Assembly: GCA_963748215.1 (NCBI GenBank)
Contig: CAVVHS010000007.1
Span: 128,001-192,000 of the forward strand
Direction of reading: 5' to 3'
Origin: an uncultured Gammaproteobacteria bacterium
GTDB lineage: Bacteria; Pseudomonadota; Gammaproteobacteria; UBA9214
Length of the DNA: 64,000 nucleotides
Notes under the pieces: model-generated
The model's input: only the letters and a program-made list of their open reading frames with translations
Database searches by the model: none
What the model was told of the DNA's origin: nothing
Shown here: positions 56,944 to 64,000 of the stretch, one piece after another
Numbering within the stretch: position 1 is the first letter of the stretch
Layout: every line of letters begins with the position of its first letter
Program-made: the position numbers and the translations under genes

Positions 56944-57225
56944 TCAACGCATCTGATACTTGCGGGAGCTGCGCACCAGCGAGCGCACCTTGGACATGTG
57001 ACTGCCCGTGCTGATGATCACGTGGCGCTCGACGTCGTCATAGACGCGCTGGGCATCGCAGTTGGCCGGATTGCCCGAGTTCTCGCATATATCCTTGACG
57101 AAGGCCTGCACACAGACCGGCAGCTGATCGTCGGTGCAGCCGAGGCAGCCATCGAAGGCGTGGTCACAGGCCAGCGCGCCGCCCGCAAACAGGATCATTG
57201 CCAGTATCAGCGCATGTCTGCGCAT
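56944..57225 (-). CDS. Small secreted Cys-rich protein
   Basis: Signal ..GALA, 6 Cys including CxxC; followed by a terminator. Confidence 0.75.
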   Translation of the reverse strand: MRRHALILAMILFAGGALACDHAFDGCLGCTDDQLPVCVQAFVKDICENSGNPANCDAQRVYDDVERHVIISTGSHMSKVRSLVRSSRKYQMR

Positions 57226-57499
57226 GGTAAAACCTAACTCCATGATTTATCTCCAAAATCACGATAGTGTCAACAAAACAGTGCCACAGTATACGCCTCG
57301 TTTACCGCAAGCGTAGTACAAATCAACGGCAGGTTTGGGGGAATGTCGAGGGCCAGGGGGTGAAAAAATGTGAATAGTTTCTTGTCAGACAGACGGTTGG
57401 CATGACCTCTTTCGAAAGCCTTCACTTTCCCCATATAAATTGCGCGGATAATTCGAGCGACGCACAGGCAGGAGTCGAGACCGTTTTTACGGGCATAGC

Positions 57500-57715
57500 C
57501 TCGGTCTCACCTTCTCCCCCTGTGCTCCACGACACCTGGACATCCCCGGCAACTGCTCCATGCGTTGTTCTACCTCCTACATCCATGTAGTCGTGCGTCC
57601 CTGCAGTCGTGTCCGTCGTCGCGGGAGACATCGACGATGTGCAGGGATGAAAAAGTGTCGCGGGAGGGCAGGATGCCCGTAGCGACCGCCGGTAGCGACC
57701 GATGTGCAGGGAGAA
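57500..57715. other. GGA-loop-rich structured element (possible CsrA/RsmA-binding RNA or repeat)
   Basis: Minus strand hairpins tgcAGGGAcgca, ctacATGGAtgtag, gcATGGAgc; plus strand gggcAGGATgccc. Confidence 0.4.
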
Positions 57716-58021
57716 GTCAGACTGCGCAGAAACCGGCGTCAGCGCATAAATAGTCTGAAAATAACAGCGGAAATGGTTCCCGGATCCGCTATACGTGGCG
57801 ACAGCACTCGACTGACGACAGAGGGCGGGGGGTCGCATTAAAGTCTGCTGCCCGGTCTGTCGATTGTGTCACAGGTAAGCTCAGGCCGGGAAACATGTCT
57901 GCCAGCGCTTGAGGCCATCGCAATATCGCGCGTGCTGGCGACAACTGCCAGCGAACGTGCCGGTGTGCCGCCATGACCGGCTATCAACAGCCAGACAAAA
58001 ATCTTCAGGATTGGCGGTGCC

Positions 58022-59083
58022 ATGCAAGCGAGTGTTGTGTCGATCACCAGGCTGAAGGCCGGCCTTGCCGGCCGGCGAGACTGGCTGGCAACCATCCTGC
58101 GTGTACCTCTCGGGGGGGTGCTGGCATGCGCACTGTTGACGGGTTGTACCGTGGTCAACACGGCGGTGCCTGAATCCCGGCCCGGGTCGTCGCCTGAGCT
58201 GCAGGTAGAAAAATCTCCGGTCTACAAGCCGCCCCCGGTGCCGAAATTCCTGCTGCCCGTTGCGATCCTGCTGAGCGATGATGTACCCGCGTATAGCCGC
58301 ATTGCCGATGAACTGGTGACGCGGCTTGCCCGCAGCCACGAGATCATTTCCCTGCATGGCGATCCTGCCGCCGGTGACCAGGCCATCAGCAAGCTGAATG
58401 ATTCCGGTCACGGTTATATTGTTGCCATCGGACCGTTGGCGGCACAAATCGCGCGCCGGCTCACCGGCCGGCAGATCGTCTTCTGCCAGGTCTTCAATTA
58501 TCAGGAATATGGATTGACTGCAGACCACATTCGCGGCGTGAGTATCCTGCCGCCTGCAGAGCTGCAATTCAGCACCCTGAAATATCTCGACACCGGGCTG
58601 AAACAGGTCGGCGTGATCAGCGGTCCGGGGCATGAAGCACTGATCGCTCAGGCGCGCAGTGCCGCACGGCGTCACGGGATCGAGCTCGTTCATCGCGTGG
58701 CGCACTCCGATAAGGAAATGCTCTATACCTTCAAACGCCTGTCACCTGAAATCCAGGGTCTGTGGCTTTTGCCGGATGATCGTATTCTCAGCCGCCGGGT
58801 ATTGCGCGATGTCATGGCATACAGCAACAAACACGGCAAGCAGGTTATGGTTTTCCACCCGGAATTGCTGCGACTCGGTGGACTGCTCAGCGTGAGCGGG
58901 ATTGATGCCGACATCGCGGACCAGGTGATTGTTGCGCTGCGTGCCTCATCTGCCGGTACTGCTCCACCGGCAGCCGGCCTGCTGCCACTGACGCGGATAC
59001 GTATCGAGATCAACGCACAGGGCTTGCAAAAGTTGCACACTCCGGCTGAAACACGACGCCAGGCGGTGACCGATGTCCCGTAA
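58022..59083 (+). CDS. ABC-type solute-binding-like lipoprotein
   Basis: LLTGC lipobox, IVAIGPLAA, VFCQVF, GVS, LWLLPD; overlaps the next gene; start uncertain. Confidence 0.8.
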   Translation: MQASVVSITRLKAGLAGRRDWLATILRVPLGGVLACALLTGCTVVNTAVPESRPGSSPELQVEKSPVYKPPPVPKFLLPVAILLSDDVPAYSRIADELVTRLARSHEIISLHGDPAAGDQAISKLNDSGHGYIVAIGPLAAQIARRLTGRQIVFCQVFNYQEYGLTADHIRGVSILPPAELQFSTLKYLDTGLKQVGVISGPGHEALIAQARSAARRHGIELVHRVAHSDKEMLYTFKRLSPEIQGLWLLPDDRILSRRVLRDVMAYSNKHGKQVMVFHPELLRLGGLLSVSGIDADIADQVIVALRASSAGTAPPAAGLLPLTRIRIEINAQGLQKLHTPAETRRQAVTDVP

Positions 59084-61697
59084 GCGGCTCCCGGCAGCCG
59101 GGGCATCGAATCCGCACTCGCTGCTGTCCCGGCTGCGGGCGGTTATCCCGCGCATACGCAACGTCGGTACCGGGCGCTCGCGCAGCATGATCAACGACAT
59201 CCTCCTGCTGCAGCTGGTGTTTGCGACTTGCCTGGGATTGCTGGCCATCGGTGGCTTGTGGGCAATTTCAAAGACCGTCATCGGGGATAATCTGCAAAAG
59301 TGGGCGCAGGCCTGGATTACGGAACTGGAGGAGCTCGGTGCGCCACTGTATCAATCCGGGGATGAAGAGCGTTTTCTCCGGGTCGAAAACTATGTTGCGA
59401 ACTTCCCGGAAATTGCCCTGGTCCGCTATTACACGCCGGCAGGGGAGATCCTGTTCACGCTGGACCGCAGGGTGGCGCCTGACAGGTCCGTGCTTGCCCC
59501 GCTCAGCGCCCGGCAGCTGGACAAGCTGCGCACCGCCACCGCACCGGAAAAGCCCTATCTGCTCGACACCTCGACAGCGAGTCAGTCGATGTTCCGGGCA
59601 AGTTCACCGGTCTGGATCGAGTCAATGAGGCCGGCAGACCTGTTGAACCTGGATCTCGACTCAGGGCCGGCAGACCAGGTCGAGTTGATAGGGTACCTGG
59701 AAGTCGTCCTGGATTTCAGCCACTACCAGAACCGTCTCATTGCCGGGATCAAGATCGGCAGCGTGGCGCTCACGCTTGCGCTGCTGCTGGTGGCTATGGT
59801 CGGGCGGTATTTCCTGAAGAGTGCGCTGAAGCCGCTCGCCGATCTCGCGACCCCGCTGGCCCGGCTTGCCGCCGGCGAGACCGAGGTCAGCGTGAAGGCT
59901 ACCGGGCACAAGGAGATCATGGCCATCAGCAACGCGCTGCAGACGACGATTCGTGCGCTGAACGAGCGCGACAGGATGCTGCGCCGGCTTGCACACTACG
60001 ATCCGTTGACGGGATTGCCGAACCGGCGCTTCTTCACCCAGCGACTGGAGGATGAAATCGCCTCGATCGTACAAAGCGCCGGGAGCAGCGCATTGCTGTT
60101 CGTGGACCTTGACCAGTTCAAGTACGTCAACGATACGCTGGGGCATGCCGCCGGTGACCGGGTGCTCGTTCAGGCCGCCGGCTGCCTGCAGGGCAGACTG
60201 CGTGGAAAAGACGAGATCGCGCGCTTTGGCGGTGACGAGTTCACGATAATCCTCAAGGATATCACCAGGGAAGATACAACCCGTCTGGTGGAGGATCTGC
60301 TCAGGTTCATGCAGGACATTCACTTTGTCGAAAACGGCCAGTCAATCAACGTACCGTGCAGCATCGGGGTGACAATGATCAACACCGGGCGATATACGCC
60401 TGACGAGCTGCTTTCCCAGGCAGATATGGCGTGCCACGATGCGAAGGCGCGTGGACGCAACCGCTGTTGTTTCTACGAGATATCCGGTCTGGAAAAGCAA
60501 CGGATGAAAGAGGATATCGGCTGGTCGCACAGAATAAAACAGGCACTGAATGAAAACGGTTTCCTGCTGCAATACCAGCCGATCATCGATTTGGGCAGTG
60601 GTCGCCCGGTCATGCACGAGGTCCTGCTGCGGATGCGCGACAGGAATAATAAACTGATACCGCCTGCCGCTTTCATGCCGGCCGCCAATCGGTTCGGCCT
60701 GATGGCGAAAATCGATCACCTGGTGATTCGCTGTGCCTTGCAGGCACTGGCACGTTTCAGGGAAAACGGTCATCACGTCATCTTCACCCTGAACCTTTCC
60801 GGTTATGCGTTTGAGGATCCGGCGCTGGTCACGTTCGTGCGCGAGCACCTGGAAAAGAACCGGCTGGACCCGTCTGCGGTGATCCTGGAAATTACCGAAC
60901 AGGTCGCGGTAAGGCATCTGGAAAAGGCGCGCGGGTTGATTCAGGAGCTCACGGCAATCGGCTGCCGGTTTGCCCTTGACGATTTCGGCGCCGGCTTCAG
61001 CTCTTTCAATTACCTGAAATACCTGCCTGTTGACTTCATCAAGATAGACGGCGGCTTCGTCAGGAACATGGCCAGCGATCCTGTTGACCAGGCCATGGTG
61101 AAATCGATCATCCAGGTTGCCAATGCGGTGGGCAAACAGACCATTGCCGAATATGTTCAGGATGAAGAAACACTGCAGATGCTGTGTCAACTGGGTGTCG
61201 ACTATGCCCAGGGATTCCATATCGGCAAGCCGGCCGATACCCTGCTCGCCGAGCCGTTTAAACTACCTCACAAAGGTCCGGAGCGGATCGAGTGGCAGGA
61301 CTTTCAGGAGGAATTCATTCAACTTTGCGTCCAGTGGCACCTGCGTGACGAGCCGAGTTACCGGCGGCTCGAAGAGATGATGCTGGAGCGGGGTGTGCCC
61401 GTGCGGCATACAACCATTCATGGCTGGGTGCAGCGTTACAGCCCGGAGTCGGACAATCCCGTGCAAGCCCCGGCGCATCCTGTCAACCGTGATTATCACG
61501 TCGAGGAGACATCTGTCTATGTCAAGGACCAGCGCAAGTATCTGTACCGCGCCATCAGCGCCAACGGCGATACACTGGACTTCATACTTTTTGATGCCCC
61601 CGACAGCTGGGCTGCCAGAGAGTTTTTCCTCAAGCACCTGCAGACAGGTGTAGTCACCGGCAGCGTGTTGAAAGAAACCGGGCAGCTGGCGAAATAA
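59073..61697 (+). CDS. TM-periplasmic-HAMP-GGDEF-EAL protein with C-terminal IS6-transposase-derived domain
   Basis: Two TMs, HAMP, DPLTGLPNR, RGKD..RFGGDEF, EVLLRM, DDFGAGFSS; C-terminal SYRRLEEMMLERGV..HTTIHGWVQRY..KYLYRAISANGDTLDF. Confidence 0.92.
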   Translation: MSRKRLPAAGASNPHSLLSRLRAVIPRIRNVGTGRSRSMINDILLLQLVFATCLGLLAIGGLWAISKTVIGDNLQKWAQAWITELEELGAPLYQSGDEERFLRVENYVANFPEIALVRYYTPAGEILFTLDRRVAPDRSVLAPLSARQLDKLRTATAPEKPYLLDTSTASQSMFRASSPVWIESMRPADLLNLDLDSGPADQVELIGYLEVVLDFSHYQNRLIAGIKIGSVALTLALLLVAMVGRYFLKSALKPLADLATPLARLAAGETEVSVKATGHKEIMAISNALQTTIRALNERDRMLRRLAHYDPLTGLPNRRFFTQRLEDEIASIVQSAGSSALLFVDLDQFKYVNDTLGHAAGDRVLVQAAGCLQGRLRGKDEIARFGGDEFTIILKDITREDTTRLVEDLLRFMQDIHFVENGQSINVPCSIGVTMINTGRYTPDELLSQADMACHDAKARGRNRCCFYEISGLEKQRMKEDIGWSHRIKQALNENGFLLQYQPIIDLGSGRPVMHEVLLRMRDRNNKLIPPAAFMPAANRFGLMAKIDHLVIRCALQALARFRENGHHVIFTLNLSGYAFEDPALVTFVREHLEKNRLDPSAVILEITEQVAVRHLEKARGLIQELTAIGCRFALDDFGAGFSSFNYLKYLPVDFIKIDGGFVRNMASDPVDQAMVKSIIQVANAVGKQTIAEYVQDEETLQMLCQLGVDYAQGFHIGKPADTLLAEPFKLPHKGPERIEWQDFQEEFIQLCVQWHLRDEPSYRRLEEMMLERGVPVRHTTIHGWVQRYSPESDNPVQAPAHPVNRDYHVEETSVYVKDQRKYLYRAISANGDTLDFILFDAPDSWAAREFFLKHLQTGVVTGSVLKETGQLAK

Positions 61698-61711
61698 ATT
61701 CGACCAGCGCA

Positions 61712-61970
61712 TTCGCGCATGAGATGCGCTCCTACGCCCGATCGATGCTCCTGCAGGAGCGGATCCCATCCGCGATCATTTCAAACACCGCATCGCGCAT
61801 GAGATGCGCTCCTACGCCTGAGGAATCTCTGATTAATTCTCTCTTCGTCATCCCGGCGCATGCCGGTATCCGGATTTATCAATGACCTGGATGCCGGCCT
61901 TCGCCGGTATGACGAATTAATCAGAGATTCCCTGAATGATGCACCTGCAGGAGCGGACATGGTCCGCGAA
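61712..61970. repeat. Two REPIN-like elements, the second interrupted by a MITE
   Basis: cgcgcatgagatgcgctcctac x2, each followed by gcaggagcgga..tccgcga. Confidence 0.8.
61822..61931. mobile_element. 110-bp MITE with 18-bp TIR and CTGA target duplication
   Basis: ggaatctctgattaattc (61822-39) / gaattaatcagagattcc (61914-31); CTGA at 61818-21 and 61932-35. Confidence 0.85.
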
Positions 61971-62002
61971 CGATGCATGTTATCGCGACTGGTGCCTGCG
62001 GG

Positions 62003-62938
62003 TTATTCCAGCGGCCGGCCGGGCGGCGCCAGTACATGCCCGGCATTGAGCACCACCAGTGTATAGCGCTGGCCGTTCACCTTCGCGGCCAGCCACGGCC
62101 GCACGGTATCGACCAGTTCCTGCCGTGCCACCAGCGTCGGTAATGCCAGCCGCAGGTAGTCGCCTTCGCCGTTGAGGATGACCTGTTCCTCCCCGTCCGG
62201 CAGGTGCTGGATCACGAAGTGGTTCCAGTCCATGCGAATGCCGCCGGCCACCTCGCGCGTGATGGCCGCGGCGAGCGTACCCAGTTCGGCCAGTGCGCGC
62301 CCGCAGGCAGCACGCTTGGCACCGAGGTTTTCCATGCTGAAGAACTGGAACTCCAGCCCGTCACCGCTATCGCACACCGGTCCCGCCTGCTGGCTGAAAC
62401 TCCATTGCGCCTCGGCGCTGCTGACCTCCGGCAGGTACGCCGGGTCGGCGGTTGCCACCGGTTCGTCCAGCAGGCCCTCGCACCGGTTCAGCTCGCAGAA
62501 ACGCGCGATCACGCGCTGCTCGAAGGCGGACTGTTCCTGCATGCGCGGGCTGCTCGCCACCACCGGACGGCCCGCCACGATCAGGTACAGGCTGCCCTCG
62601 GGGCCGGTGCTGAGTTCGACCGGCGTGTCGGGCAGGATACTTTGCGCCAGCAGGGTGTAATCGACCGCCAGCTGTTCGACCGCGGCGGCCCAGCGCCGCA
62701 GCCCGCCCTGCTGTGTGCGGTCGCGCTTGTCGCGGCGCGCGCGTTGCGCCTCGTCGGAGTAGGCCGCGGCCAGCTCCTCGATGGTGGCGCGTGCCAGGTC
62801 GGCGCGCAGCGGCGCGGGCTGCCCGGCAAGGTTCGCCGCCAGGCCGTTCAGCCGGTAGATCGGCGTGACTGACTGTGCCTGCGCCGTTCCCGCCGGCAGG
62901 CTGCAGAGCATCGCGAGTATGAACAGGTATCGATACAC
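62003..62938 (-). CDS. Hypothetical exported protein
   Basis: GTG start, signal ..AQA, host-like codon usage, paired Cys. Confidence 0.8.
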   Translation of the reverse strand: MYRYLFILAMLCSLPAGTAQAQSVTPIYRLNGLAANLAGQPAPLRADLARATIEELAAAYSDEAQRARRDKRDRTQQGGLRRWAAAVEQLAVDYTLLAQSILPDTPVELSTGPEGSLYLIVAGRPVVASSPRMQEQSAFEQRVIARFCELNRCEGLLDEPVATADPAYLPEVSSAEAQWSFSQQAGPVCDSGDGLEFQFFSMENLGAKRAACGRALAELGTLAAAITREVAGGIRMDWNHFVIQHLPDGEEQVILNGEGDYLRLALPTLVARQELVDTVRPWLAAKVNGQRYTLVVLNAGHVLAPPGRPLE

Positions 62939-63222
62939 TCAGGGCATCCCTGTTGGCATGTCATGGCAAGTCACGTAGTGACGAAGCCATCGTCGGCCGT
63001 GTGATTCATGAACAGGAAAGCTCGCTTCGCTGCGTGCGTCATGACGAAATCCTGGCTGAATGAGGGGCTTCATGAGAAACAGTATACCGGGCCGCTTGCC
63101 CGGACGGGCCTGATGTCGATCAGGATTTTCCGGTGCCGGTCTGTGCCATGATGAAGAACGTGATGGACACAACGCCGCTACCCGCTATCCCGCAGCTGCC
63201 CGCCGCACCGGCCGCGCTGCTC

Positions 63223-63267
63223 CCGGCATGCGCCGGGATGACGATGAGTGAATTAATCAGAGGTTCC
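63223..63267 (-). mobile_element. Solo inverted copy of the 61822 MITE left end
   Basis: 42/45 match to the reverse complement of 61822-61866; followed by CTGA. Confidence 0.7.
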
Positions 63268-63509
63268 CTGAATAATCGCGCTTGGGAAGCGCTCCTGCAT
63301 TGATAGATACACCTGCGGATCCGGATATCCGCGTAGGGTGCGTTTTACGCACCGGGGAGGGTGCCCAGCGTGCACCCTGCGGGCGCGGTCCGTGTGAAGA
63401 CCTGCTTTTTGCAATCAAACAGCCACATTCTCCCGGAATCCGCAAATCTCATAACCGCTGCTTTGGGTTCTATGTTAGGTTCTGTGACAGTAGCGAAAGG
63501 AGGTGGTGT

Positions 63510-63986
63510 ATGCGTAAACACATAACCGGCGAGGTCGCCCAGAAAACCTCGCCTGCAGGAAATGAGAACTGGCTGGACCTGGATCAGCTGGTGACCGTCG
63601 AGCTGACGTCCGAGGATGCGGCCTATCCGATCGAGTCGGCGCTGCTGGCCGATGGCGGGCCTGGCTGGCGCGCGCAAGACCCCGGAAAGCAGACGATACG
63701 CCTGCTGTTCGACAAGCCGCGCAGAATCAGTCACATCCAGTTGGTGTTTCAGGAAACGGCGCGGGGGCGTACCCAGGAATTCGTGCTGCGCTGGTCCGCG
63801 GGCGGCGGGGCACCCGATCGGGAGATCGTGCGCCAGCAGTACAACTTCAGTCCGCCCGATGCGACCCGCGAACTGGAAGACTATGTCGTCGAGCTCGACG
63901 GGTTGACGGTGCTGGAACTGATGATCATCCCCGATATCAGCGGCAACGACACGCGGGCGTCGCTGGCCCAGTTGCGGCTTGCCTGA
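63510..63986 (+). CDS. Putative carbohydrate-binding (galactose-binding-like fold) protein
   Basis: SD aaaggagg; TSED..YPIESAL, GWRA..PG.QTIRL.FD, RTQEF, RQQYNFSP. Confidence 0.75.
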   Translation: MRKHITGEVAQKTSPAGNENWLDLDQLVTVELTSEDAAYPIESALLADGGPGWRAQDPGKQTIRLLFDKPRRISHIQLVFQETARGRTQEFVLRWSAGGGAPDREIVRQQYNFSPPDATRELEDYVVELDGLTVLELMIIPDISGNDTRASLAQLRLA

Positions 63987-64000
63987 TCGTTCCCTGCGCG

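Follow-up and report, generated by a model that had tools for sequence, protein, structure and literature searches.

An IS6-family transposase fragment, very probably domesticated, at the C-terminus of a membrane GGDEF-EAL protein

The window examined here is a 64,000-nt stretch of contig CAVVHS010000007.1 (positions 128,001 to 192,000; assembly GCA_963748215.1) from an uncultured gammaproteobacterium. Towards its end lies a gene for a membrane sensor protein with the GGDEF and EAL domains of cyclic di-guanosine monophosphate (c-di-GMP) turnover. Its open reading frame (ORF) runs on past the EAL domain into sequence resembling the transposase of an IS6-family insertion sequence (IS). The question raised by this locus is whether the extension, here called the tail, is a decaying insertion that is still read through or a transposase fragment that the host has kept and, if kept, what it does. 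The tail has very probably been domesticated (exapted), a captured IS6 fragment being kept by purifying selection. Because the remaining half of the transposase is kept in this way, it is regarded as a domesticated fragment and not as a decaying insertion.

The tail comprises the 154 residues that follow the EAL domain (window 61233-61694). It matched the NCBIfam profile NF033587 (transpos_IS6) with E 2.7e-36, tail residues 20-138 aligning with profile positions 2-120 of 202 (window 61290-61646). Residues 807-858 matched positions 3-54 of the 139 in the Pfam family DDE_Tnp_IS240 (PF13610) at E 1.6e-8, scoring 35.2 bits where the cut-off is 27. NF033587 has a cut-off of 125 bits; the excised tail scored 125.2 bits, and the genome search gave 123.7 bits, under the cut-off. 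The matched part of the profile corresponds to a three-helix helix-turn-helix (HTH) and, within the RNase H fold, to strands 1-3 and helix 1. The closest free-standing relatives of the tail were IS6 transposases, at 44-48% identity. A sequence-only reading of this stretch had placed an IS6-type C-terminal extension at 61287-61697, with about 150 residues of open frame past the EAL domain; the profile matches and the single 874-residue ORF agree with it.

The Asp-Asp-Glu (DDE) triad of the IS6/IS26 transposase Tnp26 is given as D78, D138 and E173 in PMC8477213. The first catalytic Asp was kept in 0/25 fused tails (Val 16, Glu 7, Ala 1, Asn 1), against 74/75 IS6 transposases, and reads Glu in the window copy (E811), as had been noticed from the letters. 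The absence of the remaining DDE core was likewise confirmed, the profile match ending at position 120 of 202, short of both the second Asp and the Glu. The IS26 inverted-repeat motif was sought with up to two mismatches; 8 matches were found in the window (5.6 expected) and 0 within 61000-62100, in line with the earlier remark that no IS6 terminal repeat was visible. The 3.5-Mb genome of the window (G000) contained no second IS6 match anywhere and no profile match beyond position 120. Set against a functional IS6/IS26 transposase, the tail lacks a full-length profile match, the DDE triad, the F4 and F9 aromatic pair and flanking terminal inverted repeats (TIRs) of 14 bp. It retains the predicted N-terminal three-helix HTH with conserved positions, the window copy having Gly at R49. 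With these residues gone, the tail cannot catalyse transposition, and it is predicted to be unable to cut DNA.

Selection was estimated from codon alignments of five genomes by the Nei-Gojobori method (10 pairs). The ratios of nonsynonymous to synonymous rates (dN/dS) are given beside the features to which they apply.

58022..59083, plus strand: ABC_sub_bind-like periplasmic protein (353 residues), encoded upstream in the same operon (Pfam PF04392, E 3.6e-7).
59073..61697, plus strand: whole GGDEF-EAL-tail gene, 874 residues plus stop (ORF list, Pfam and the 15-sequence alignment A1).
59991..60464, plus strand: GGDEF domain, residues 307-464 (PF00990, E 9.9e-44, 149.4 bits against a cut-off of 23.8); dN/dS 0.03-0.32.
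60531..61232, plus strand: EAL domain, residues 487-720 (PF00563, E 7.3e-70, 235.4 bits against a cut-off of 31.3); dN/dS 0.05-0.17.
61233..61289, plus strand: linker, residues 721-739, predicted disordered; dN/dS 0.42-3.4, roughly neutral.
61290..61442, plus strand: transposase-derived three-helix HTH, residues 740-790, approximately Tnp26 positions 5-55, at which the NF033587 match starts; dN/dS 0.14-0.37.
61422..61424, plus strand: codon of G784, the equivalent of Tnp26 R49 (Arg in 19/25 fused tails, Gly in the window copy).
61443..61490, plus strand: variable loop from the HTH to the RNase H remnant, residues 791-806, basic residues of IS6 lost; dN/dS 0.30-2.4.
61491..61652, plus strand: DDE/RNase H core remnant, residues 807-860, reduced to strands 1-3 and helix 1 (PF13610 profile 3-54 of 139); dN/dS 0.15-0.41 (6 pairs; dS saturated in the other 4).
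61503..61505, plus strand: codon of E811, the former first catalytic Asp (no Asp in 25/25 fused tails).
61653..61697, plus strand: disordered, drifting C-terminal 14 residues (861-874) and stop codon, no profile match past position 120, rest of the transposase deleted; dN/dS 0.56-2.05.

Across the tail core (residues 740-860) dN/dS was 0.14-0.39 in 10/10 pairs, and the proportion of nonsynonymous differences (pN) reached or exceeded that of synonymous differences (pS) in 0/1000 codon bootstraps of each pair. The linker, the loop and the C-terminal end drifted, so the method was able to detect relaxed constraint, with these parts of the same gene as internal controls. Third codon positions were variable in 91 of the 121 tail codons, against 56 for the first position and 51 for the second. 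Synonymous sites were near saturation between genera (pS up to 0.70), and the tail was still free of stops. The sense frame was the only one open in all five genomes. The tail protein evolved at about twice the rate of the EAL domain, distant pairs being 47-62% identical in the tail and 77-84% in the EAL domain. As in a domesticated domain, catalysis and mobility have been lost, the locus is fixed and orthologous across species, purifying selection acts and the genome holds a single copy. An antisense ORF (61263-61769, 168 residues) was considered as the cause of the conservation and rejected; it is open in G000 only and carries 2-5 stops in each of the other four genomes.

The tail was searched against the 54 species genomes of the window's family, a family of uncultured sediment bacteria; these are also all the genomes of its order in the searched set. 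It was found fused in 6/54, in three genera, five of the genes lying in open frames of 744-925 residues and one being split at a contig end. The five open frames were:

G000 (window genome), genus g1: query, open frame of 875 residues.
G061, genus g1: tail 88% identical to G000, open frame of 901 residues.
G018, genus g1: tail 57% identical to G000, open frame of 744 residues.
G052, genus g21: tail 59% identical to G000, open frame of 890 residues.
G056, genus g22: tail 55% identical to G000, open frame of 925 residues.

The sixth carrier was G003, in which the gene is broken across two contig ends. The operon arrangement was identical in G000, G018 and G003. Five other genomes of the family contained free IS6-like frames of 199-299 residues, merely 25-30% identical to the tail. 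The G018 record is titled 'uncultured Halobacteria archaeon', though its relatives are gammaproteobacterial metagenome-assembled genomes (MAGs); the title is probably a mislabel.

A protein database search with the tail returned 15 clusters with tails 50-100% identical to the query and with GGDEF and EAL in 15/15; a search with the sensor region added further tailed clusters, for a total of at least 23 protein clusters. Assemblies of NCBI, JGI, ENA and Logan origin, which are independent sources, showed the same architecture. In five DNA sequencing runs from two studies, 88-94% of the sampled words of 60700-61900 were present. A 4089-nt contig from study one spans the junction with 1 difference; this study may be the source sample and is therefore not independent support. 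Study two provided overlapping contigs with 0 differences and a variant contig bridging 61199-61372. Stand-alone tails were sought among proteins of 84-270 residues and no clear free-standing form was found there. Matches of at least 54% identity either carried an EAL remnant or measured approximately 104-118 residues, and the short matches were mostly on contigs of 1-4 kb, although one sits where a long contig ends. When 400 sampled genomes of the class were searched, G000 alone had a tail match at E <= 1e-25. The sequence-only reading had proposed an old, selected fusion and not a recent insertion, and had named restriction to this assembly and a tail dN/dS near 1 as signs to the contrary. 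The counts of genomes, genera and clusters and the dN/dS range above all fall on the side of the fusion.

It had also asked whether orthologs end directly after the EAL domain. Close orthologs keep the tail; orthologs of other families (P0173, P0174, P0177-P0182) do stop 16-42 residues after the EAL 'QGY.IGKP' motif, with no IS6-like sequence. The sensor regions of the tail-less orthologs were 56-62% identical to that of the tailed form. P0173, in G198 (another family of the same class), stops 42 residues after the motif; its contig is long, and its gene shares a two-gene operon with an ABC_sub_bind-like partner, as in the tailed forms. Among the 400 class genomes, 8 (including G000) matched the tail-less ortholog at E <= 1e-150. 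On these comparisons the tail-less, EAL-terminated form is taken to be the ancestral state, so the short distant orthologs are not evidence of chance read-through. The tail-less C-terminus ('...SLC.SPFPL...') resembles the start of the tailed linker ('...TLL.EPF.LP...'), and for this reason the junction was placed just after the PFPL-type motif.

The origin of the tail was followed in two trees. The tail tree was built from 100 N-terminal regions in 123 columns (25 fused tails and 75 IS6 transposases). The IS6 rows were picked from the 147 non-fused proteins among the best 150 matches, most N-terminally extended and many short proteins being omitted. The 25 fused tails lay on one side of a branch against the 75 IS6 transposases, with a Shimodaira-Hasegawa-like approximate likelihood ratio (SH-aLRT) support of 92, or of 96 for the 24 without P0175; in an earlier tree with 18 tails the support was 100. 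The enzyme-body tree had 36 rows, from which P0167 (cut at a contig end) and P0183 (no EAL domain) were omitted. It contained a clade (support 96) of 22 tailed proteins and P0168. P0175, with a divergent 137-residue tail in which the first Asp is Asn, grouped by its body among the tail-less proteins (support 94). The fewest gains and losses of the tail on the body tree were 3. The tail co-diverges with the enzyme body in the trees. The spacing from the 'PFPL' motif to the conserved Trp in P0175 equals that of the other tails, and on this account one capture followed by a few losses appears favoured over two captures.

From its N-terminus the protein consists of a membrane/periplasmic sensor region, a HAMP-like segment (residues 249-297; Pfam E 0.037, weak and below the cut-off), the GGDEF domain, the EAL domain, the linker and the IS6-derived tail. 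The GGDEF and EAL scores both exceed the Pfam gathering scores and place the protein among the GGDEF-EAL proteins of c-di-GMP turnover. The GGDEF motif, with RxxD five residues upstream, and the EVL, DDFG, KID and QGF motifs were readable in the window protein and invariant in alignment A1. The stop end of the ABC_sub_bind-like gene and the start of the GGDEF-EAL gene share 11 nt in the window genome, and the identical overlap was present in G018, G003 and the tail-less ortholog of G198. The linker contains the old junction between the C-terminus of the host gene and the captured transposase frame; no indels were present in it among the 15 sequences of A1. Approximately half of the tail's invariant residues in that alignment fall in the HTH part.

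AlphaFold2 was run on the EAL domain plus tail (25-row alignment) and on the tail alone (93-row alignment). In the first model the mean predicted local distance difference test score (pLDDT) was 77.5, with a folded EAL domain, a disordered C-terminus and a linker (model residues 234-256, full-length 716-738) below 50. The tail alone gave the same elements at a mean pLDDT of 80.9 and a predicted template modelling score of 0.74. In order, three helices, a loop, three strands and one more helix are predicted, with pLDDT of 89-94 for the HTH helices, 61-75 for the loop, 89-95 for the strands and last helix and below 50 for the last 14 residues.

In the Tnp26 article (PMC8477213), a disordered arm (M1-D12, with F4 and F9) and a three-helix HTH (I13-R53) are described as binding the 14-bp TIR; binding is abolished by F4A, F9A, R49A or W50A, each singly, and the M1-P56 fragment binds weakly by itself. 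R29 is proposed there as the reader of TGT in the TIR, and the F4/F9 arm as possibly acting in multimerisation. Tail positions were mapped to Tnp26 numbering through the IS6 family consensus, and the spacing of F-4-F, ERG and RWVQRY fits the numbering of that article. The residues in the fused tails were:

F4 position: Ile 18, Val 4, Met 1, Leu 1 (aromatic in 0/24 tails covering it).
F9 position: Phe in 23/25.
R29 position: Arg in 20/25.
G39 position: Gly in 25/25.
R49 position: Arg in 19, among them the G056 and P0007 types; Gly, Asn, Ser or Gln in 6, with Gly in the window copy.
W50 position: Trp in 25/25.
Y54 position: Tyr 17, His 5, Phe 2, Leu 1.

The most invariant stretch of the tail was HTH helices 2-3, whose residues are as in the IS6 consensus. 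A strand 2-3 motif was also invariant in alignment A1 (K822, L824, Y825, R826, A827, G832, D836, F837, L839, D841). The net charge of the HTH was +1.5 (18 tails) against +2.3 (75 IS6 transposases), and that of the loop -2.7 in tails against +2.3 in IS6. Ten columns that are basic in IS6 were lost in the tails, mostly in the loop and the RNase H remnant. With little change in the HTH and loss of charge elsewhere, the HTH is the part closest to the ancestor, as the sequence-only reading had it, and the DNA-contact surface of the catalytic core appears stripped. A sequence search of solved structures with the tail gave a best E of 0.22, to an unrelated monooxygenase, and no IS6 structure was available among them. 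Foldseek against the PDB with the tail model gave no match at E <= 0.001, the weak top rows being retroviral integrases and the ISCth4 transposase.

The evidence supports the following history as very probable. An insertion sequence of the IS6/IS26 family inserted at the 3' terminus of a gene for a membrane sensor GGDEF-EAL protein, and the transposase frame was fused in frame to the C-terminus of the enzyme. The element afterwards lost its inverted repeats, the second half of the catalytic core and the first catalytic Asp. What remains, the N-terminal half of 120 residues, has been retained by purifying selection as a new C-terminal domain. It is made up of a short arm at the N-terminus, the HTH with its three helices, and the first three strands and first helix of the RNase H fold; a flexible linker of approximately 20 residues, itself evolving freely, connects it to the EAL domain. 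The tail would most likely be a non-catalytic macromolecule-docking module that gives a periplasm-sensing c-di-GMP enzyme a local target; in the working model, docking would proceed in the manner of 'trigger' phosphodiesterases such as PdeL. Domestication and docking taken together are considered probable, the docking part being much less certain than domestication. For a specific DNA site read by the retained HTH as the target, the chance is put somewhat short of even; the rest is divided between protein contacts, weighed below, and other targets or none.

Chance read-through into a decaying, recently inserted IS6 copy, with a functionless tail that merely has no stop as yet, would accord with the neutral drift of the last 14 residues and the linker, and IS fragments adjoining genes are common. 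Against this, junction and frame are shared by 3 genera and at least 23 clusters, pS between genera reaches 0.70 with no stops and with dN/dS of 0.14-0.39, and neither a TIR within 61000-62100 nor another IS6 in the genome was found; read-through is accordingly highly improbable. An assembly or gene-calling artefact, in which a chimeric contig joins an EAL gene and an IS6 fragment, is scarcely credible: every sequence does come from metagenome-assembled genomes, but assemblies of independent origin (NCBI, JGI, ENA, Logan) agree on the architecture, contigs of two studies cover the junction and the tail co-diverges with the body. Truncated transposase N-termini inhibit transposition in other IS families, and the tail might in the same way bind incoming IS6 ends or poison transposase multimers, guarding the genome against IS6 invasion. 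Among the 54 family genomes, 0/6 fusion carriers had a free IS6 and 0/5 genomes with a free IS6 had the fusion, and G000 itself is without IS6. This zero overlap of 6 and 5 in 54 nevertheless fits chance (approximately 0.6 expected), and genomes that are related do not count as independent observations. The family's free IS6 copies are just 25-30% identical to the tail, tethering to a membrane enzyme has no obvious rationale, and F4 and, in part, R49 have been lost; a role as inhibitor is thus very unlikely.

The weightier alternative to a DNA target is that the tail is kept for protein-protein contacts, either self-association that sets the dimer state of EAL and GGDEF or docking of a partner, through an interface that the half RNase H sheet would form together with the retained F9 arm. 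The motif of strands 2-3 has stayed invariant despite lost catalysis, and the models suggest that a three-stranded half fold would expose a normally buried face, which must be buried somewhere. Ten basic IS6 columns have gone, net charge has fallen from +9.0 to -0.8, R49 is lost in the window's subclade and F4 everywhere, and the F4/F9 arm may serve multimerisation in Tnp26 (PMC8477213). What speaks for DNA is that the strongest constraint lies on HTH helices 2-3 and that the conserved residues are those of the IS6 consensus, with R29, G39 and W50 kept and R49 present in 19/25 tails. Protein contacts are a tentative explanation, given roughly one chance in three.

Several observations weigh against a DNA-binding tail or against a function needed wherever the enzyme occurs. 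The F4 aromatic residue is missing from all tails that cover the position, and the window's subclade has Gly, Asn or Ser at R49. The net charge of the aligned region was -0.8 (range -7 to 7; 18 tails) against +9.0 (range 2 to 16; 75 IS6), and that of the window HTH (tail-query positions 4-55), counted on the sequence, approximately -3. In the whole genome no exact IS26-type TIR was found, and with up to one mismatch there were 18 matches against 7 for a reversed control, none of which stood out as a target. A wide VIA-align search with the model gave a best Z of 4.4 and none at 5 or above; the top rows were DNA-binding HTH domains (DeoR, TrpR, the Tc3 transposase DNA-binding domain, ISCth4 with a root mean square deviation of 1.0 Å over 41 residues, and IS629 TnpE), which agree with an HTH but are too weak to be counted. 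Tail-less orthologs function without a tail. P0168, inside the tailed clade, ends 13 residues after the EAL domain, either because the tail was lost or because the contig ends there. In G018 the ortholog is divided, within its sensor region, into overlapping ORFs of 150 and 742 residues (L004, G018:C16, 3650-4102 and 1477-3705, minus strand), which reflects either a frameshift or an assembly error. The carriers are all uncultured, the named records all being MAGs of uncultured Gammaproteobacteria or Pseudomonadota.

In its most specific form the DNA-docking reading would make the protein a membrane-anchored trigger enzyme whose exapted IS6 HTH reads a short TGT-containing site, a relic of transposon-end recognition; this form is unlikely. 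A candidate site, named speculatively, would be a conserved element upstream of the protein's own operon. This element, of approximately 45 nt at 57834-57880 (CATTnAAGTyTrC, a spacer and TGTCGAwT), is present in 5/5 genomes of 3 genera, 186-207 nt upstream of the ABC_sub_bind gene. It had no Rfam match and may serve the operon as promoter or as the binding site of a regulator. If this reading were true, periplasmic sensing and c-di-GMP turnover would be directly coupled either to transcription or to the membrane tethering of a chromosomal locus, and a signalling output would have been built from a transposase.

The tail was compared with known systems. With the IS6/IS26 transposases (NF033587, PF13610; Tnp26) the arm, the HTH, the three strands and helix 1 align residue for residue, and G39, W50 and mostly F9, R29, R49 and Y54 are conserved. 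The tail differs in having no DDE triad, inverted repeats, other genome copy or F4 aromatic residue, in forming the C-terminus of a host enzyme at a locus of fixed synteny, and in having approximately 10 fewer positive charges. The tail-less orthologs (e.g. P0173 of G198) share the sensor region, the GGDEF-EAL body, the ABC_sub_bind operon and the native 'PFPL' motif, and differ in their stop soon after the EAL motif and in having no IS6-like sequence. In eukaryotes, domesticated transposase DNA-binding domains include CENP-B and the Pax paired domain. There, too, the host keeps the DNA-binding domain after catalysis and mobility are lost; the present case differs in being bacterial, in its IS6 source, in having a second-messenger enzyme and not a stand-alone transcription factor as recipient, and in keeping half of the catalytic fold. 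To our knowledge there are few clear bacterial cases in which a piece of a DDE transposase is kept as a domain of a non-mobile protein.

In Escherichia coli PdeL (YahA), a LuxR-type HTH is linked to an active EAL domain, and the protein binds DNA and regulates its own promoter in response to c-di-GMP (PMC5052742). PdeL is a soluble protein with the HTH at its N-terminus and without a GGDEF domain. The window protein resembles it in combining an apparently active EAL domain and an HTH in one polypeptide. Here, by contrast, the HTH is C-terminal, transposase-derived and followed by half an RNase H fold, on a membrane-anchored enzyme with a periplasmic sensor region, and no LuxR-type family was found in a Pfam scan of the window protein.

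The kind of system is a known one on both sides, as an exapted transposase DNA-binding domain and as an HTH joined to an EAL enzyme. The combination of an IS6 source, half a catalytic fold, the C-terminus of a membrane GGDEF-EAL sensor and living tail-less orthologs appears to be an undescribed variant, and in a literature search of titles and abstracts no account of c-di-GMP enzymes with an IS6-derived domain came up. Its history can be read almost stepwise, from tail-less orthologs through one junction to lost catalysis and inverted repeats, with neutral controls in the gene itself. A new output or docking domain would be added to the GGDEF-EAL repertoire. Because tailed and tail-less forms of one enzyme both occur, nature provides a comparison on which the 'local signalling' or 'trigger enzyme' idea can be tested. 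The case is relevant to research on mobile-element exaptation and on c-di-GMP signalling. Source annotations read 'EAL domain-containing protein' or 'diguanylate cyclase (GGDEF)-like protein'. A tail fragment at a contig end (P0191; G003:C3, locus L019 1459-1812) is annotated 'IS6 family transposase, partial', so such tails can inflate IS counts in MAGs.

Many IS6 relatives of 298-471 residues (P0024, P0027-P0038) carried N-terminal extensions of 100-240 residues before a complete transposase; two of them (P0024, P0038) were inspected. In the neighbourhood of the gene, Rfam over 57000-64000 gave a single row (COG3860 RNA, E 0.23, below the gathering score), and promoter and terminator scans gave counts no higher than in shuffled sequence. 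One RNA run contained 6% of the sampled words; its contigs covered EAL parts (with many differences) and the downstream repeat, with none on the tail, and as contigs they are uninformative on transcription.

Downstream of the gene, a 29-nt unit occurs in two copies (61713 and 61793), and repeats lie within 61713-61969 and 63223-63304. A 45-nt inverted pair (61822-61866 and 63223-63267, 93% complementary) flanks a minus-strand ORF of 311 residues (62003-62938) that had no Pfam match. The 24-nt repeat core has 7 copies in the genome. Summed metagenome contig depth was 200-1200 over the repeat stretch, against approximately 10 for the gene, and on account of this high depth the stretch is assigned to a widespread repeat family resembling repetitive extragenic palindromic (REP) sequences or miniature inverted-repeat transposable elements (MITEs).

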